A stretch of 64,000 bases of DNA from an uncultured Gammaproteobacteria bacterium (GTDB lineage Bacteria; Pseudomonadota; Gammaproteobacteria; Xanthomonadales; SZUA-36). The stretch is taken from NCBI GenBank assembly GCA_963815185.1, contig CAWFGC010000011.1:443618-507617 (forward strand), written 5' to 3'. This document shows, one piece after another, positions 297-9,680 of the stretch. The position numbers and the translations under genes were made by a program. The notes below the pieces were generated by a model. That model was given only the letters and a program-made list of their open reading frames with translations, had not been told where the DNA came from and did not search any database. Position 1 is the first letter of the stretch; the number at the start of each line of letters is the position of its first letter.

Positions 297-312
297 TCTT
301 CCATTCCTGGCT

Positions 313-393
313 GAGCTCTCGGACCTGATCGAGGGTCGAAAGCAAGTGCGGCTCTACAGCCTGCAAGAGTACGACGCGCTGAAATCAAATTAG
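313..393 (+). pseudogene. C-terminal fragment of island family B protein
   Basis: Translates to ELSDLIEGRKQVRLYSLQEYDALKSN*. The intact paralogs end VKCGYSQTDYDALKTN* (4846..5274) and VTCGYSKQEYTELKAQ* (2601..3035). There is no start codon or signal peptide. Confidence 0.4.
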
Positions 394-454
394 GAGAAGC
401 AGGCTACTGAATCGCAGCGGAGAACCGCACACGGTTTGTCGATTTATCGAGCGA

Positions 455-546
455 TGATAGTGCCACGCAAATGCCTGGATTACTTGACGCCCTATGAGGT
501 GTTCAAAGACACTCGGGAAACACTAACCGTTGCACTTCGTAGTTGA
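455..546 (+). mobile_element. IS30-family transposase, C-terminal remnant
   Basis: VPRKCLDYLTPYEVFKD...ALRS* resembles the conserved RPRKxLGYxTPxEVF tail of IS30 transposases. No upstream DDE domain is present. Confidence 0.45.
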
Positions 547-758
547 ATCTAAGCCCCGTTCCCTGCCCATGCGCTTTCACTATTTTGGTGCCACCCGCAT
601 CCGAATTGTAGACCTTGTGCGGGACCGTTTCCGGGCCGTCTTTTCCGTTTTAGGTCAGTATTTCAATTTTAAAGCCAGTTTTATTTGTCCCCGTCACCTT
701 GACGTTGCGTGTTCCGTCTGCAATTTCCATCAGTTCATATCCGCGGCTGTGGGCAACC

Positions 759-1100
759 TCACCAGACCCAGGTCATGTCTCCCGTGCCGCATGCCACGCC
801 ACAGTTATAGGCGAGGTAATAGAAAGTGTTTTCTGACGTGTTGTCGACATCGACCAGTATTTTGCAATTCTTGTCTTCTTGCAGGATTTTCTTTATATCG
901 TTGCAGGGAATTTTCACATTTCCGTTTTTGCCGGTCGTTGTATAGATCTTTATGTGGTCAAAACCGTCTTTTTTATCGAGGTTAATGGTCTTGCTCTGCC
1001 CGGCAAGGATCTCCAGGGTGTTGCTCCCTGCTCGTGTACCATCAGACTTCTGCGCCAGGGAGTTCAGCTTTTTGCAGAAGGATTTGGGTCGGCCCTTTGG
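759..1100 (-). pseudogene. truncated paralog of island family A secreted protein
   Basis: The minus-strand frame is open from an in-frame TGA (1101-1103) to the stop at 759-761. It reads ...DGTRAGSNTLEILAGQSKTINLDKKDGFDHIKIYTTTGKNGNVKIPCNDIKKILQEDKNCKILVDVDNTSENTFYYLAYNCGVACGTGDMTWVW*, roughly 60% identical to 3817..4335. The N-terminal part and signal peptide are disrupted by stops. Confidence 0.65.
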
Positions 1101-1303
1101 TCAATATCGCTTAGTGCTGGTCAATTACCCTGGGTATTCGTTGTCACAAGATTTTATGTTTCTACGCTTAATGGATTACAAGCGGGAATCGGCCAAGCGC
1201 AGTTTTGCTGGCACCAGCTTGATTCATAATAGATAAAGTTCAATATTAACAGACACATGAGATTTCTTTGGTAATACAGAAATGATTCAGGAGAACTGCC
1301 GAC

Positions 1304-1774
1304 ATGAGCACAAAAAACACATTATTGCCCAGCGTATTGCTGTGTCTTACCATGGTCAGTACCTGCAACGCATCCGGTAAACTGGATTTTTGCGAGGCGG
1401 GTTCCGATTGTAACGATGGGGGAGTGGTAAACCTTGCATCGGTGGTGGTTACCAAGGTGAAGGTTACGCAGTTAGCGGGTGCGAACAATTGTCCGGAAGT
1501 AGAAAAAACGCACTCTGAGAACCTGATTTCCCATACCGCAAGCTCACTGTTCACCATGGAAACCGCTGATCCCAAAACCTACTTCACTCTGAAACTCCTG
1601 AAAGCCTGTCCGTACCACATCAAGTTCAGCACCACTGCGGGCTGCATAGGTGATAAAGACGCAAAGATTTCATTGGATAATCAGAACAATAAAGAGCCCA
1701 GAACCTGGGCGTTATTGAAAGGTGCCTGTGGAACTCTGAAAGCCAACACTGCTTACGTAGAGTCCATTGAGTGA
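1304..1774 (+). CDS. small secreted or lipoprotein-like Cys-rich hypothetical protein
   Basis: AGGAGA Shine-Dalgarno lies upstream of the ATG. The hydrophobic N-terminus LLPSVLLCLTMVSTC looks like a lipobox. Six further Cys are present and I recognise no enzyme motif. Confidence 0.7.
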   Translation: MSTKNTLLPSVLLCLTMVSTCNASGKLDFCEAGSDCNDGGVVNLASVVVTKVKVTQLAGANNCPEVEKTHSENLISHTASSLFTMETADPKTYFTLKLLKACPYHIKFSTTAGCIGDKDAKISLDNQNNKEPRTWALLKGACGTLKANTAYVESIE

Positions 1775-1890
1775 CGCCCTGAAACCATCATTCTATCACT
1801 CAACATTCAGTGGATTTCAGCTGTTAACCCGCATTCACACGGACGCCGACAACCACGATGATTGTCAATTAATTCTTCAGCAGGTTGTGT

Positions 1891-7350: not shown

Positions 7351-7403
7351 GTGCCAAATCAAATCGTGAATGGAATTGAGCGCAACGATCATGCTCATAC
7401 TGT

Positions 7404-7889
7404 TTATTGCAAGTCGGTCACAGTAAGCGTTGTGGTATATCGCAATTTGTCTTTGTTATAACTCTTCTCGCAGGTGATATTCAGCTCCCGGTTGTCCGGA
7501 CATACTTCGGTCTCACCCTCGGCCAGCAACCACTCCATGTAGTTTTCACCTTTCTTTATGGTGTACTTGCAGGCCGATGACCATTTGCCCGGATCGGGAT
7601 AAATTTGCACGGTGAAGTCTCCCTGTCCTTTGGTCCAGGTGAACTTGGCGAGCTTGGAAAATTCTTCTCCCGGCTTGATGAATTGACTGTCTTTTTTTGA
7701 ATCACCACGCAACAGCACGACATTGAGTGTGCTGGCACGGGTCTCATTCTTAACCCGGGTCCTCGCTTCACCGTTGGCGAAGGCGGCTGCTTTTCGGGAA
7801 GTTTTCTCGCAGGAGCCAGCCCAGGTCAGGCCGGGGATTGAGAACAGGAGGACCAGTAACAGAATTGATTTTGAGCGCTTCAAGGACAT
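7404..7889 (-). CDS. small secreted hypothetical protein
   Basis: GAGGTG SD lies upstream of the ATG at 7889. Signal peptide is SILLLVLLFSIPGLTWA. The mature part has four Cys. Confidence 0.75.
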   Translation of the reverse strand: MSLKRSKSILLLVLLFSIPGLTWAGSCEKTSRKAAAFANGEARTRVKNETRASTLNVVLLRGDSKKDSQFIKPGEEFSKLAKFTWTKGQGDFTVQIYPDPGKWSSACKYTIKKGENYMEWLLAEGETEVCPDNRELNITCEKSYNKDKLRYTTTLTVTDLQ

Positions 7890-8087
7890 GGCTGACACCT
7901 CGTTTTCATCCAATGAGTACAGCGTATTTCAGCGTCAGGTTATGACAGGAAATGTGAAAAAAGAAAGCGGCCCGAAAATCACCTTCGACATGTGTCAAGC
8001 CTGATTTTTACACCCACCTGGCAGGTTTCTGCCATGGAATTCGCTAGTGAGAGGGAAAGCGTCATGCACACAAGAGGAGGATTCATC

Positions 8088-8474
8088 ATGTTTCGGTCAA
8101 AGACACCCGTTGTTACCGGACTGTTTGCTCTGGCGCTGGCAGCAATGCTCTCCACCCCCGTATTCGCCAACAGCCGGTTCACGGTGAAGAATAACAGTGA
8201 CGCCAGAGTGAGCCTCACCATCTTCAATGGCGGCGACAAAATCTGTTTTACGGGTAAGCAAAAGCAGTTATCTCCGGGCGAAGAAGGCAGCTATGGCTGC
8301 GATGGCAACGGCAAACAACGCTGCAAGGTTGGGTTTGAGGCCCGTTACAGCGGCGGCCAGGTGAATAATACGCTGTGCAAGGATATTGGTAGTGGCTGTG
8401 GTGTCCATATCCCGAACGGTGGTGAAGTTGTAATCAACAGTGATCAGACCTGTACCCGGACCAGCCCGGAGTAG
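8088..8474 (+). CDS. small secreted Cys-rich hypothetical protein
   Basis: GAGGAGG SD lies upstream of the ATG at 8088. Signal peptide is VVTGLFALALAAMLSTPVFA. The mature part has six Cys. Confidence 0.75.
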   Translation: MFRSKTPVVTGLFALALAAMLSTPVFANSRFTVKNNSDARVSLTIFNGGDKICFTGKQKQLSPGEEGSYGCDGNGKQRCKVGFEARYSGGQVNNTLCKDIGSGCGVHIPNGGEVVINSDQTCTRTSPE

Positions 8475-8491
8475 GGGCAAGAGATTCGCGG

Positions 8492-8574
8492 GTCAAAGGG
8501 GTCTGAACAACTTGATCTGCCCCATCGATTGGAATTTCAAGTTGTTCTGACCCCTTTGGTTTTCCTTTGGTTTT
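8492..8574. repeat. palindromic REP/MITE-like element, copy 2
   Basis: Same palindrome as at 7257, with one arm mismatch (GTCTGAAC). Confidence 0.85.
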
Positions 8575-8754
8575 AAGCCCTTAATCGGCCGTAGTACTCA
8601 ACAGCGCAATTTCTCCGGAGTTCCCGCAACGTATCGCTTGTATTTGTCGCGGGAGCGCGTTCTTCAATGGCAGAATTTTCGCTCGGGTTGCGCTTAATGA
8701 ATCAGGTGCCAGAGTCGATACCGGTCCATTCAACAGAATCGGAATGCAATCAGA

Positions 8755-9348
8755 ATGATGAAACCAATGTTCAACAGACAAACATTCACAAGCCGGCCAG
8801 TGCTCATATCAACTTTTTTACTACTCATTCTGGGGTTCGTATCTCATTCCGCAATCGCCAACGACTGTCCCGCGGCTCTGGAATTCGCAATCACGCCGGG
8901 ACCCAATAACACTGCGATCAACACCTGCCGAAACTTTGCAATCGACGGCAAGTCCATTACCGCGAAATGCCACAACATCCAGAAGGTGTGGAAAGACACA
9001 ACGGCCGAGTGCGACAACATCGTCGCGAACGACAAGAATGGCCCATACGCGCTTTCAAACCAGGACGGCAACCTCTCATCCAGCCACGAATGTGGCGGTG
9101 CCGTGCTGGAATGGTCCAAAAAGAAATCTTCGAGCAATTCAAGCCCGGACACCTGCGAGAATTATCGCATTGACGGCAAGTACATCAAGGCACAATGCCG
9201 GAACAGAGACCAGGTATTGAAAAACACCAAGGAAAACTGTGAGAAGATTTGGTACAAGGCCAAGAATGGGATGATGATTATGGAAAATTACAGAGGCAGC
9301 CTGACCGTCAGTTGTCCACTTTGGCAGACCGATCCGCCATGCAAATGA
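8755..9348 (+). CDS. secreted Cys-rich protein with two CVNH-like (cyanovirin-N homology) half-repeats (family C)
   Basis: Signal peptide is PVLISTFLLLILGFVSHSAIA. There is an internal repeat: TCRNFAIDGKSITAKCHN...SNQDGNL and TCENYRIDGKYIKAQCRN...ENYRGSL. This resembles the CVNH pattern sC.N..l.G..L.A.C...N.dG.L. The mature part has ten Cys. Confidence 0.7.
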   Translation: MMKPMFNRQTFTSRPVLISTFLLLILGFVSHSAIANDCPAALEFAITPGPNNTAINTCRNFAIDGKSITAKCHNIQKVWKDTTAECDNIVANDKNGPYALSNQDGNLSSSHECGGAVLEWSKKKSSSNSSPDTCENYRIDGKYIKAQCRNRDQVLKNTKENCEKIWYKAKNGMMIMENYRGSLTVSCPLWQTDPPCK

Positions 9349-9680
9349 CCCGATCCGGCACAGTTCCAGAGCCCTCTATTTTCAGGTCTGGATACCATCG
9401 CCTGAAAGTAGTCTTATGTAAATCACCGTTGAGGACCACCGTGCGGGTCTGCAGTAGATTGTGAGCACCCTCATGGGCCCGCTGCATTTGCTGCTAAGCC
9501 AGCAGTCATCAATGAGTTCCAGACTGCTTTGTGCATTGCCGTGCCACAGGTACCACTTCGCGCTTGCCAGATCCTTCTTGACGGTCTTGCCAACGTCTGG
9601 ATCTGAGCGAATAGGAACCATTAACGGCGTTTTTCGGTACTGAGGCAGGTATCGGCGGCGAGGGGCTATGAGAAACCAAA

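Follow-up and report, generated by a model that had tools for sequence, protein, structure and literature searches.

An accessory region of small, putatively exported, cysteine-rich proteins beside tRNA-Leu(CAA) in an uncultured gammaproteobacterium

We analysed a 64,000-nucleotide stretch of DNA (the window) from an uncultured Lysobacterales-like gammaproteobacterium and found that window positions 297–9680 form a 9.4-kb, low-GC island, bordered by an antiporter fragment and the 3′ end of tRNA-Leu(CAA), with ten intact genes and four pseudogene remnants (Table 1). Our tentative reading is of a long-standing accessory region evolving by birth and death, whose ten small proteins are exported, disulfide-bonded binding proteins used against or with other organisms; their most likely role is that of a changeable kit of binding modules for such encounters. 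The original prediction, made from the letters of the DNA, had spoken of a horizontally acquired birth-and-death arsenal. Its picture of an accessory set of exported, Cys-paired, non-enzymatic proteins with paralogues and remnants stands, whereas recent, private acquisition does not.

Table 1. Features of the island and its borders, in window coordinates. Signal peptides are predicted; Cys counts refer to the mature protein.
Feature	Position	Strand	Description
Cation/Ca2+ (Na_Ca_ex) antiporter, 3′ part of gene	3–296	+	ORF ends at 296
Family B C-terminal remnant	325–393	+	ends ...YSLQEYDALKSN*; directly 3′ of antiporter breakpoint
Family A pseudogene remnant	762–1100	-	C-terminal two thirds; no start codon, no signal peptide
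p1 (family G)	1304–1774	+	156 aa, signal peptide, 6 Cys
p2 (family D)	1891–2460	-	189 aa, signal peptide, 4 Cys; SD GAGGAG
p3 (family B)	2601–3035	-	144 aa, signal peptide, 6 Cys
Family F (p8-type) pseudogene remnant	3439–3645	+	C-terminal part, ...DHLRYKTKFALTDAQ*
p4 (family A)	3817–4335	+	172 aa, signal peptide, 6 Cys, Trp-rich C-terminus
p5 (family B)	4846–5274	+	142 aa, signal peptide, 6 Cys; modelled
p6 (family E)	5593–6195	+	200 aa, signal peptide, 6 conserved Cys; ATG at 5593, SD AAGGAGG
Family C (CVNH) pseudogene fragment	6274–6468	-	tblastn to p10
p7 (family A)	6556–7083	-	175 aa, signal peptide, 6 Cys
Palindromic repeat copy 1	7254–7324		71 nt, 23-bp stem, 3′ of p8; -42 kcal/mol, z -6.5
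p8 (family F)	7404–7889	-	161 aa, signal peptide, 4 Cys
p9 (family H)	8088–8474	+	128 aa, signal peptide, 6 Cys
Palindromic repeat copy 2	8490–8560		begins 16 nt past p9 stop codon
p10 (family C)	8755–9348	+	197 aa, signal peptide, 10 Cys; putative CVNH domain, two half-repeats
tRNA-Leu(CAA)	9681–9767	-	ARAGORN; 3′ end is the right-hand boundary
Palindromic repeat copy 3	9881–9951		3′ of metX, between metX and tRNA, outside island

The island is accessory, as shown by its composition, a break in synteny, its absence from related loci and its four remnants. GC content is 47–56% over positions 500–10000 and about 60% in the rest of the window, and the island genes (GC 0.515, or 51.5%; GC3 0.634) lie below the core ORFs (GC 0.608, or 60.8%; GC3 0.715), as expected of a region described at the outset as AT-richer than the core. 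The antiporter fragment is core-like (GC 0.60, GC3 0.80), matches profile positions 49–141 of 151 in Pfam Na_Ca_ex, and is 76% identical to its orthologue at locus L092. About 15 C-terminal codons are missing here (‘...HLVLT*’ vs ‘...HLTLFAVYLMLVFDLSAL*’ in L092), which marks the left breakpoint of the island. At the other border, homology to about 45 related genomes halts at the tRNA 3′ end (9678–9681), and none of the ten island proteins is present at 80 related metX loci. The abrupt end of the antiporter gene and the tRNA boundary had both been noted correctly. The metX–tRNA spacer is 307 bp here and far shorter in relatives (about 85–105 bp in L002).

The ten genes, one more than the nine originally counted, lie in mixed orientations and fall in eight families, A–H, of which family C is CVNH and the remaining seven are undescribed. 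A Shine-Dalgarno-like sequence precedes nine genes and is absent at 8755–9348, just as had been noted. All ten N-termini pass a crude home-made signal-peptide rule (not SignalP) that 11 of 49 control ORFs (22%) also pass. Signal-peptide-like N-termini were therefore found throughout, but the suggestion of a conserved lipobox for some of them is unsupported: homologues of families A and F show that the Cys following the signal peptide is part of the mature domain. The predicted even Cys numbers (4, 6 or 10 per mature protein) agree with our counts, and these residues are invariant in the alignments of family E (A1), family A (A2, six Cys) and family B (A3, six Cys). The loose N-x-[ST]...L-x-[PSA]-G-[EQ] pattern also held up; with L or I at its third fixed position, it occurs in six of ten proteins, where shuffles predict 0.07, and is common to families A, B, F and H. 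Judged by sequence profiles, families D and E are related (hhalign probability 93.6%), the motif links A, B, F and H, and family G stands apart from both groupings.

Searches of the ten proteins against Pfam and NCBIfam gave nothing significant except CVNH, in keeping with the expected lack of an enzyme motif; p1 matched nothing in Pfam, nor did any of 37 family E members (0/37). PADLOC returned no match for the island proteins, PHROGs gave just three weak matches (E 0.004–0.007), all to families of unknown function, and no toxin domain was found among them. Apart from CVNH, the families are rare, with 7–48 clusters per searched family among 1.8–5.8 billion proteins: family A has only seven members and p2 (family D) eleven relatives in 5.8 billion, 1.84 billion representatives yielded 46 real clusters of family E, and p5 of family B has nine relatives. 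Island proteins are singletons in clustering at 90% identity. For p9 we found no homologue (a singleton cluster, with no relative in JGI metagenomes); it carries the NxS...LxPGE motif, and its profile is weakly similar to those of family B (59%) and family F (47.5%).

Paralogue families and pseudogene remnants together fit birth and death. In family A, p4 and p7 are 59% identical, and the remnant, placed at 762–1100, matches their residues 63–172 at 59–63% identity (tblastn, E 1e-37 to 1e-43) and additionally the L083/L084 homologues. The family B pair p3 and p5 (43% identity) is sound, but the tail proposed as a third member is statistically weak (325–390; tblastn with p5 residues 118–142, E 0.67), its likeness to the family being seen by eye in alignment A3 (‘YSLQEYDALKSN’ vs the C-terminus ‘YSQTDYDALKTN’). 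The proposed family C fragment shares 61% identity with p10 residues 101–154, and a lower 34% with that protein's internal repeat (residues 35–88). The family F remnant, which the original prediction had missed, was recovered by tblastn with residues 105–172 of L089_759 (36% identity, E 3e-6).

The suggestion that these proteins are lectin-, toxin- or effector-like is borne out in its lectin part for one gene, p10, and not in its toxin part. By sequence, p10 narrowly qualifies as a CVNH (cyanovirin-N homology) lectin-type domain: its Pfam CVNH score of 25.4 bits is marginal, 0.9 bit above the gathering cut-off of 24.5, and its score against the NCBIfam mannose-binding lectin model (30.6 bits) is far below the equivalog cut-off of 80. 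Against cyanovirin-N chains it gives a phmmer E of 1.3e-3, with both half-repeats aligned, each with a C-x13-C pair.

We modelled p6 (family E) and p5 (family B) with AlphaFold2. The p6 model (pLDDT 83, pTM 0.76) is all-beta and the p5 model (pLDDT 82, pTM 0.74) all-beta with a C-terminal helix; for family B, two of five models were confident. Both families are thus predicted to be beta-sandwiches. The two models retrieve largely one set of structures with Foldseek, namely domain 4 of cholesterol-dependent cytolysins (CDC), 2mca, the HGSNAT lumenal domain and PepT extracellular domains (best E 1.7e-3 for p6), and p6 retrieves actinoporin FraC as well. The best match of p5 is pneumolysin domain 4 (5cr8_A; E 2.9e-4, TM 0.49/0.59). 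Both models resemble, at borderline significance, the membrane-binding domain 4 of CDCs. Across all matches TM is 0.3–0.6 and rmsd often 8–10 Å, and these borderline similarities suggest little more than a generic beta-sandwich. Sequence searches of the PDB found no relatives up to E 5 with profiles A1 and A3, and just weak, implausible matches with A2 (E 0.008–0.9).

The palindromic repeat reported as private to the region is real, its copies folding with a 23-bp stem at -37 to -44 kcal/mol (z -6 to -7), but one of three copies lies outside the island. The region is not littered with IS fragments, as had been claimed: when the whole intergenic DNA was scanned in six frames against Pfam, no match reached E<=0.1, and the sole transposase-like peptide reached E 0.5 against plasmids. 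Within the window we found neither an integrase nor an att-type copy of the tRNA end; the DNA left of the antiporter lies outside it.

At least four other contigs carry several of the island families at once, in combinations and copy numbers that vary, and a stand-alone lipoprotein secretin is encoded on two of these contigs. The families are a guild that recurs jointly in several unrelated bacteria. L082 has families A and E, two intact F genes and one F pseudogene; L089 has D and one F homologue; L087/L088 have three B genes, E, J and a series of D genes, which in L088 comprises four tandem paralogues of full length, a fifth that is shorter and one additional partial match, with the three B and the five D genes all co-directional. 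Mobile-element genes (integrases and transposases) border the arrays of L082 and L087/L088. In L090/L092, from a related organism, the set consists of an F orthologue with a broken paralogue, two D genes, E, G, J and a remnant of family A. In L092, orthologues of p2, p6 and p8 (the last 83% identical), a more diverged p1 homologue and the A remnant lie beside the orthologous antiporter; p1 shows 39–40% identity to the gene adjoining the p2 orthologue at each of L090 and L092. At both, the set has genes for an MliC lysozyme inhibitor and an ECF sigma factor as neighbours, and these suit a defensive envelope role no less than an offensive one.

Comparison with these orthologues dates the set. 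The dS of p6 and p8 against L092 (0.76–0.85) is comparable with the antiporter value (1.0), which argues that the set predates the split from L092/L090, and dN/dS values (0.13 for p8, and within 0.13–0.18 for p6 against L092 and for the family A paralogues, with p4 vs p7 at 0.18) indicate purifying selection; p2 against L089 gives 0.05. Antiporter-like dS and low dN/dS together point to a maintained, long-standing region and not a fresh island.

As their N-termini suggest, the proteins would be exported by the Sec pathway and would then be oxidised to disulfide-bonded, all-beta single domains, a step in which even Cys counts are seen and the beta-sandwich is predicted for two families. They would act outside the cytoplasm through binding and not catalysis, as one CVNH lectin-type and seven undescribed families of diversifying modules that bind glycans, membranes or surfaces and serve adhesion, recognition or attack. 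Exit from the periplasm, the targets and the choice between offence and defence are what we infer. Against this reading, a Sec signal delivers a protein only as far as the periplasm, and the window shows no type II secretion link.

A toxin/effector arsenal is one among at least two readings that the data permit. Taken literally, the original prediction implies a recently acquired, integrase-type tRNA genomic island with such an arsenal, for which one can cite the abutting tRNA 3′ end, low GC and GC3, the truncated flanking gene, a segment missing from relatives at this locus, and the integrases and transposases beside other arrays. We consider this improbable, however, since the window lacks an integrase, IS remnants and a directly repeated tRNA end, no toxin domain was detected, and the L092 orthologues beside the antiporter, with their antiporter-like dS, show the set to be old in the lineage. 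That the proteins are lineage-specific envelope or structural components (periplasmic chaperone-like or surface-layer accessory) that do housekeeping and take no part in encounters with other organisms we regard as very improbable: beta-sandwiches are a common envelope-protein scaffold and suit this reading, as do purifying selection and retention beside a core gene in a relative, but the distribution is extremely patchy, and variable copy number, remnants, mobile-element genes elsewhere and absence at 80 related loci mark the set as accessory, not housekeeping. Decaying, non-functional DNA with chance or dying ORFs could account for the four remnants, the long intergenic spacers and the truncated antiporter, but is scarcely credible given dN/dS of 0.05–0.18, Cys kept across distant homologues, Shine-Dalgarno-like sequences before nine genes and confident structure predictions for p6 and family B.

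A defensive periplasmic kit, in which the proteins remain periplasmic and block enzymes or toxins arriving from outside (for instance lysozymes, lipases, hydrolases of peptidoglycan, or T6SS/T4SS effectors), is unlikely but deserves weight. To our knowledge CVNH is not an immunity fold, yet one member has it; neither Pfam nor NCBIfam shows similarity to known families of immunity proteins or inhibitors, there is no immunity protein among the Foldseek matches listed, no cognate effector or secretion-system gene at any inspected locus and no XerD-like recombinase, and the genes in the window run in mixed directions. Small, Sec-exported, disulfide-bonded, non-enzymatic proteins are nonetheless what such a kit would contain, and divergent tandem paralogues, low-GC arrays of mixed families, the co-directional B and D genes of L088, the MliC and ECF sigma factor genes adjoining the set in L090 and L092, and the absence of toxin genes nearby all favour it. 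Its counterparts would be inhibitors of the MliC/PliC type or orphan-immunity gene arrays. AID/rAID orphan-immunity arrays combine a skewed GC content with numerous small genes of diverse kinds (10.1101/471110), and arrays of the island type are like them in both respects.

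The segment between positions 297 and 9680 of the window abuts, on one side, the 3′ end of the only tRNA gene of the window, tRNA-Leu(CAA) (9681-9767, minus strand), and on the other an ORF that ends at position 296 and matches the Na_Ca_ex antiporter profile over positions 49-141 of 151. The antiporter orthologue at L092, a metagenomic contig from a related organism, shows 76% identity where the two overlap and extends beyond the window protein by 15 residues ('...HLTLFAVYLMLVFDLSAL' vs. '...HLVLT' in the window), so the window gene is truly cut at about position 290. Between these boundaries lie ten intact ORFs (p1-p10, table), one more than the nine small exported-type genes of the original prediction, which otherwise described them well: a GGAG-type Shine-Dalgarno sequence precedes nine of the ten and is missing, as claimed, only before p10. 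All ten proteins begin with positive charge followed by hydrophobic and then small residues, by a simple home-made N-terminus rule (not SignalP) that 11 of 49 control ORFs also pass, and the mature proteins have the even Cys numbers (4, 6 or 10) that had been noticed. Each mature protein is one domain of 101-167 aa, and Pfam matches none of them apart from the cyanovirin-N-type (CVNH) domain of p10. The proposed AT-richness was likewise borne out, with GC of 0.515 in island genes vs. 0.608 in core ORFs and GC3 of 0.634 vs. 0.715; the antiporter stub, at GC 0.60 and GC3 0.80, is core-like in composition.

Genes, gene remnants and palindrome copies of the segment and its tRNA-side flank (window positions)
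Feature	Family	Positions	Strand	Remarks
p1	G	1304-1774	+	intact ORF; 6 mature Cys
p2	D	1891-2460	-	intact ORF; 4 mature Cys
p3	B	2601-3035	-	intact ORF; 6 mature Cys
p4	A	3817-4335	+	intact ORF; 6 mature Cys
p5	B	4846-5274	+	intact ORF; 6 mature Cys
p6	E	5593-6195	+	intact ORF; 6 mature Cys
p7	A	6556-7083	-	intact ORF; 6 mature Cys
p8	F	7404-7889	-	intact ORF; 4 mature Cys
p9	H	8088-8474	+	intact ORF; 6 mature Cys
p10	C	8755-9348	+	intact ORF; 10 mature Cys
Pseudogene piece	A	762-1100	-	~60% identity
Pseudogene piece	C (CVNH)	6274-6468	-	61% identity
Tail	B	325-393	+	weak (E 0.67); convincing by eye only
Remnant	F (p8 family)	3439-3645	+	E 3e-6
Palindrome copy		7254-7324		3′ of p8
Palindrome copy		8490-8560		3′ of p9
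Palindrome copy		9881-9951		3′ of metX

Low-GC patches also occur elsewhere in the window, at 32-33 kb and 63-64 kb. One encodes, at 31839-32177 (minus strand), a 112-aa ORF that consists almost wholly of Lys/Ala/Pro repeats (KKAAAKKAPAKK...) and resembles histone H1 or AlgP in this. Two ORFs in or near these patches (30883-31761 and 63163-63882, both plus strand) look sulfotransferase-like by eye, and tblastn detected no relation between them and the island families.

Paralogy within the segment had been proposed for three families with remnants. The paralogue pairs are real (p4 and p7 of family A, 59% identity; p3 and p5 of family B, 43%), as are the remnants of A and C; the family B tail, placed at 313-393, was recovered only weakly, and a remnant of the p8 family had been missed. 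An internal repeat was also detected within p10 by tblastn. The loose N-x-[ST]...[LI]-x-[PSA]-G-[EQ] pattern noticed earlier does recur, in six proteins of four families (A, B and those of p8 and p9) against 0.07 expected. Profile-profile comparison with hhalign supports a relation between D (p2) and E (p6) at profile level (93.6%) and hints at possible kinship of p9 with B (59%) and with p8 (47.5%), the remaining pairs being noise; we therefore rejected a single superfamily for all families. Family A ends in an aromatic-rich tail behind a conserved Cys ('YNCGVAWGEGDIVWVW', 'YNCGVASDRADASFWSF'; in p4, window 4270-4335), and its family alignment has a Trp/Phe-rich C-terminus ('NCGVAWGEGDIVWVW') that, we presume, loosely recalls the undecapeptide of cholesterol-dependent cytolysins (CDCs) or Trp-rich membrane-insertion loops.

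These families are exceedingly rare. Only p10 matched a known family, and the other nine proteins had no significant match in Pfam or NCBIfam and none in PADLOC. Each of the nine sequences open to an exact look-up forms a cluster of its own at 90% identity among about 15 billion proteins. Families A and B and that of p2 count 7, 9 and 11 members, respectively, in 5.8 billion clusters. An exhaustive HMMER search with p6 returned 48 matches in 1.84 billion representatives, two of them repeat artefacts (the long 'multi-repeat' P0042 and P0080, rejected as low-complexity repeat translations). A metagenome scan yielded one weak locus for family B and no relatives of p9. Cys residues are invariant or nearly so across the family alignments. 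None of the 37 aligned members of family E carries a Pfam domain, and the E and B profiles matched nothing among PDB sequences up to an E-value of 5. Matches of the family A profile to SEC9 and a fucose-binding lectin (E 0.008-0.9) were judged spurious, and a release-factor (RF-1) match of p4 was rejected as driven by an 'SGSGG' stretch (21 bits vs. a cut-off of 35).

For p10, the Pfam CVNH model (PF08881) scores 25.4 bits over two stretches, a narrow margin above the gathering cut-off of 24.5, and the NCBIfam mannose-binding lectin model NF052356 scores 30.6 bits, far below its cut-off of 80, so that equivalog level is not reached. With phmmer, residues 56-92 and 127-163 align to both cyanovirin-N half-repeats, and the C-x13-C spacing in 'TCRNFAIDGKSITAKC' and 'TCENYRIDGKYIKAQC' is the same as in cyanovirin-N 'TCYNSAIQGSVLTSTC'. 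By these scores and alignments, p10 carries a CVNH domain, if by a narrow margin.

AlphaFold2 gave confident models for two further families. The p6 model (37-sequence alignment) has a mean pLDDT of 83, a pTM of 0.76 and about ten strands; that of family B (10 sequences; two of five models confident) has a mean pLDDT of 82 and a pTM of 0.74, and is all-beta with a C-terminal helix. Foldseek searches against the PDB returned largely common targets for both, namely CDC domain 4, 2mca (function unknown), the HGSNAT lumenal domain and PepT1/2 extracellular domains, and the actinoporin FraC for p6 only. The best family B match, pneumolysin domain 4 (5cr8_A; E 2.9e-4, TM 0.49/0.59, rmsd 9.2 Å), is borderline, as are the best p6 match (E 1.7e-3) and that of p6 to CDC domain 4 (TM 0.29/0.46, E 9.6e-3); identities are 9-14% and rmsd is often 8-10 Å. 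In size and all-beta architecture these small families resemble CDC domain 4 and actinoporins, but the proteins lack the pore-forming domains 1-3 (MACPF/CDC) of CDCs. Moreover, the same searches return non-toxin beta-sandwiches (HGSNAT, PepT1/2, 2mca and a transthyretin-like protein), so the CDC match may reflect a common fold only. We take the models to suggest that family B and p6 share a beta-sandwich binding-module architecture, and not cytolysin membership.

The same families recur together in other bacteria. At locus L082, family A is followed by E, two intact F genes and an F pseudogene, with integrases, transposase genes and a truncated secretin nearby. The near-identical loci L087 and L088 hold three tandem B genes and then four full D genes with a shorter fifth copy, as well as a partial D match, E and a further family, J, in an array of lower GC than its surroundings. 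The E gene is intact in L088 (7580-8164) and split by a DDE transposase insertion in L087 (5667-8164), showing directly that genes are still being lost from these arrays. L089 encodes D (88%) and then F. Among the genes of L090/L092 are a broken F paralogue, J, F (83%), a D paralogue, E (about 73%), a Ser/Thr kinase with TPR repeats, a secretin, an ECF sigma factor, MliC, a family A remnant, D (71-74%), G (40%) and the Na_Ca_ex antiporter. Family J (about 200 aa; L092 1651-2259 vs. L088 16901-17527, 32% identity, E 1e-20) is exported-type, uncharacterised and missing from the window, and family A also occurs alone in contexts that are alphaproteobacterium-like by neighbouring genes and high GC. 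Context look-ups for P0014, P0034 and P0039 yielded short contigs at best. Because each family is so rare, this repeated co-localisation in different combinations cannot be chance, and it defines what we call a guild.

A stand-alone lipoprotein-type secretin adjoins the arrays on two unrelated contigs (L092 7576-9141, intact; L082 8232-9503, truncated), flanked in L092 by the Ser/Thr kinase, the ECF sigma factor and MliC. The two copies align over 395 aa, N-terminal region included, with 26% identity (E 8e-34) and belong to one subfamily. The small-protein families of the arrays are new. As far as our searches show, the guild in which they travel together, with its recurrent secretin neighbour, has not been described. 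The mobile-element-rich A/E/F neighbourhood of L082 also contains two small Cys-rich exported-type ORFs, at 1053-1517 (minus strand; 15 Cys, furin-like Cys repeats) and 6808-7230 (plus strand; 9 Cys), for which no relation to the window families was detected.

On the tRNA side, the locus can be compared with many relatives. Among the GTDB representatives, which do not include the source species, the best MetX match (86%) comes from an uncultured gammaproteobacterial MAG (L002), collinear with window 10060-21240, and the next from Lysobacterales MAGs. About 45 loci keep the order metX, tRNA-Leu(CAA). Homology to the relatives at the nucleotide level stops at 9678-9681, the 3′ end of the tRNA; at least ten relatives continue with rnd and an FGE-sulfatase-like gene, in most cases also with tRNA-Arg(CCT), none of which is found in the window, and neither the ten proteins nor the antiporter is found in any of 80 related loci. 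Synteny thus breaks at the tRNA 3′ flank, and the window alone does not allow a simple insertion to be demonstrated. In L002, an insertion of its own (~4.4 kb, 11295-15740) separates tRNA-Leu from the conserved FGE-like and rnd genes and encodes a thiamine-pyrophosphate enzyme as well as a TPR and an NRDE-like protein, so this flank is variable in several lineages. An HNH/DUF222-like gene precedes tRNA-Arg in L002.

The segment had been described as littered with IS fragments, which our searches do not support: a six-frame Pfam scan of all intergenic DNA in 297-9680 found no transposase or integrase remnant, and the sole transposase-like peptide ('PRKCLDYLTPYEVF', about 430-540) reached at best an insignificant E of 0.5 against plasmids. 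None of the ten genes has a Pfam match to an integrase or recombinase, and the tRNA-Leu 3′ end does not recur as an att-type direct repeat anywhere in 1-10100; a distal end may lie beyond the window. The palindromic repeat is real (71 nt, near-perfect, 23-bp stem, -37 to -44 kcal/mol, z -6 to -7) but not private to the island, as one of its three copies in 64 kb lies outside the segment. No related locus fetched contains a copy, and the only other match is a Logan contig (L001) whose sequence duplicates the window here. The palindrome resembles hairpin elements of the REP, MITE or terminator type, and its copy 3′ of metX also looks to have enlarged the metX-tRNA spacer (307 bp vs. about 85-105 bp in L002). 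Scans for generic promoters and terminators stayed at chance level. A phage origin was rejected, since families A and B have no relatives in 2.9 million viral contigs, PHROGs gave three weak matches only (E 0.004-0.007, function-unknown families), and the fold matches in BFVD were all weak and all to uncharacterised proteins (best Mx8 p59, rmsd 20 Å). PADLOC reported no anti-phage defence system.

Comparison with orthologues points to purifying selection over a long time. Against L092, dN/dS is 0.13 for p8 (dS 0.76), 0.18 for p6 (dS 0.85) and 0.19 for the antiporter stub (dS 1.0); it is 0.18 between p4 and p7 (dS 1.7) and 0.05 between p2 and its L089 relative (dS 3.2). Judged by these ratios, the island genes are functional. 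Some of them, at least, must have adjoined the antiporter before the window and L092 organisms diverged from their common ancestor. Gene order and orientation differ between the two loci and p1 is far more diverged (40%), which, together with the pseudogene remnants, indicates ongoing rearrangement and turnover.

These results bear on the view of the segment as a classical, recently integrated tRNA island, which we consider unlikely as stated. Like tRNA-linked islands, the segment has a boundary exactly at a tRNA 3′ end, deviates in GC and GC3 and carries accessory cargo missing from relatives at this site. Unlike them, its 9.4 kb contain no integrase, att duplication or mobility genes, and its far side is a truncated core gene instead of the relatives' FGE-like gene, rnd and tRNA-Arg. 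Of the horizontally acquired birth-and-death arsenal envisaged in the original prediction, the accessory nature, the birth-and-death pattern and one putative lectin (p10) remain, but recent acquisition and an offensive arsenal are not demonstrable. A tRNA-adjacent low-GC 'island' can instead be an old, selectively kept birth-and-death region.

We favour, tentatively, the reading that the ten genes encode exported binding modules. The region is accessory, low in GC and flanked by a tRNA, and its ten constrained genes encode proteins with signal-peptide-like N-termini and conserved Cys pairs; to these come one CVNH domain, predicted beta-sandwiches for two families and the guild behaviour. The small proteins would be exported by the Sec pathway and form disulfides, their function would be binding rather than catalytic, and they may act in dealings with other organisms. 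A serious rival, although less likely, is a defensive kit of periplasmic inhibitors or immunity proteins, which the MliC and ECF sigma neighbours and the analogy with the AID/rAID arrays of orphan immunity genes in Bacteroidales (Ross et al., 10.1101/471110) favour. [quoted passage not shown] Repetitive intergenic sequences also characterise them; in the window there is one palindrome, with two copies inside the region and a third outside it. The segment also differs in its mixed strands, its uniformly exported-type products and its proteobacterial hosts, and has no XerD-like recombinase. Neither homology to known immunity proteins (no Pfam or NCBIfam match to immunity families, T6SS or other, among the ten) nor an effector context speaks for such a kit. 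MliC/PliC inhibitors are likewise small, exported, beta-rich envelope proteins, and an MliC gene lies inside the relative's homologous cluster, but the guild proteins have no sequence match or reported fold match to MliC.

More speculatively, and improbably in our estimate, the guild could be part of an unrecognised bacterial system of diversifying, disulfide-locked beta-sandwich 'effectors', a prokaryotic counterpart of fungal small Cys-rich sets. A stand-alone lipoprotein secretin dedicated to these effectors, and controlled by an ECF sigma factor and a Ser/Thr kinase, would release them, and they would bind the membranes or glycans of neighbouring eukaryotes or bacteria. Hints in this direction come from the same secretin subfamily beside the arrays in L092 and L082, from the kinase, ECF sigma factor and MliC adjoining them in L092, from the CDC-domain-4-like fold matches of both modelled families, and from the aromatic C-terminus of family A.

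Should the binding-module reading hold, seven families without Pfam, NCBIfam or PDB relatives, together with J, would constitute a guild of exported binding modules that travel together in uncultured Proteobacteria. Such a guild would help to explain how Lysobacterales-like bacteria of the environment recognise other organisms, adhere to them, attack them or resist them. It would also provide new beta-sandwich scaffolds stabilised by disulfides and, for work on glycan binding, a CVNH lectin from a proteobacterium. The secretin that recurs beside the arrays is a lead to a dedicated export route.

The organisation of the segment recalls the effector sets of fungi and oomycetes: many small signal-peptide proteins with even Cys numbers and no enzyme motifs, in lineage-specific paralogue families that undergo birth and death in compositionally odd compartments. 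The likeness is organisational and implies no homology, as the window host is bacterial, with the Sec pathway and periplasmic disulfides. A CVNH protein belongs to such fungal/oomycete repertoires of small secreted Cys-rich effectors, and one, SsCVNH, is a secreted fungal effector (PMC11064801). Mature p10 is larger than cyanovirin-N (162 aa and 10 Cys, with a long insert between the half-repeats, vs. 101 aa and 4 Cys), and its host is a gammaproteobacterium, whereas CVNH proteins in the literature considered here are cyanobacterial, fungal, fern or ascidian. Its secretion-type N-terminus places p10 alongside cyanovirin-N and SsCVNH (PMC11064801), both of which are secreted.
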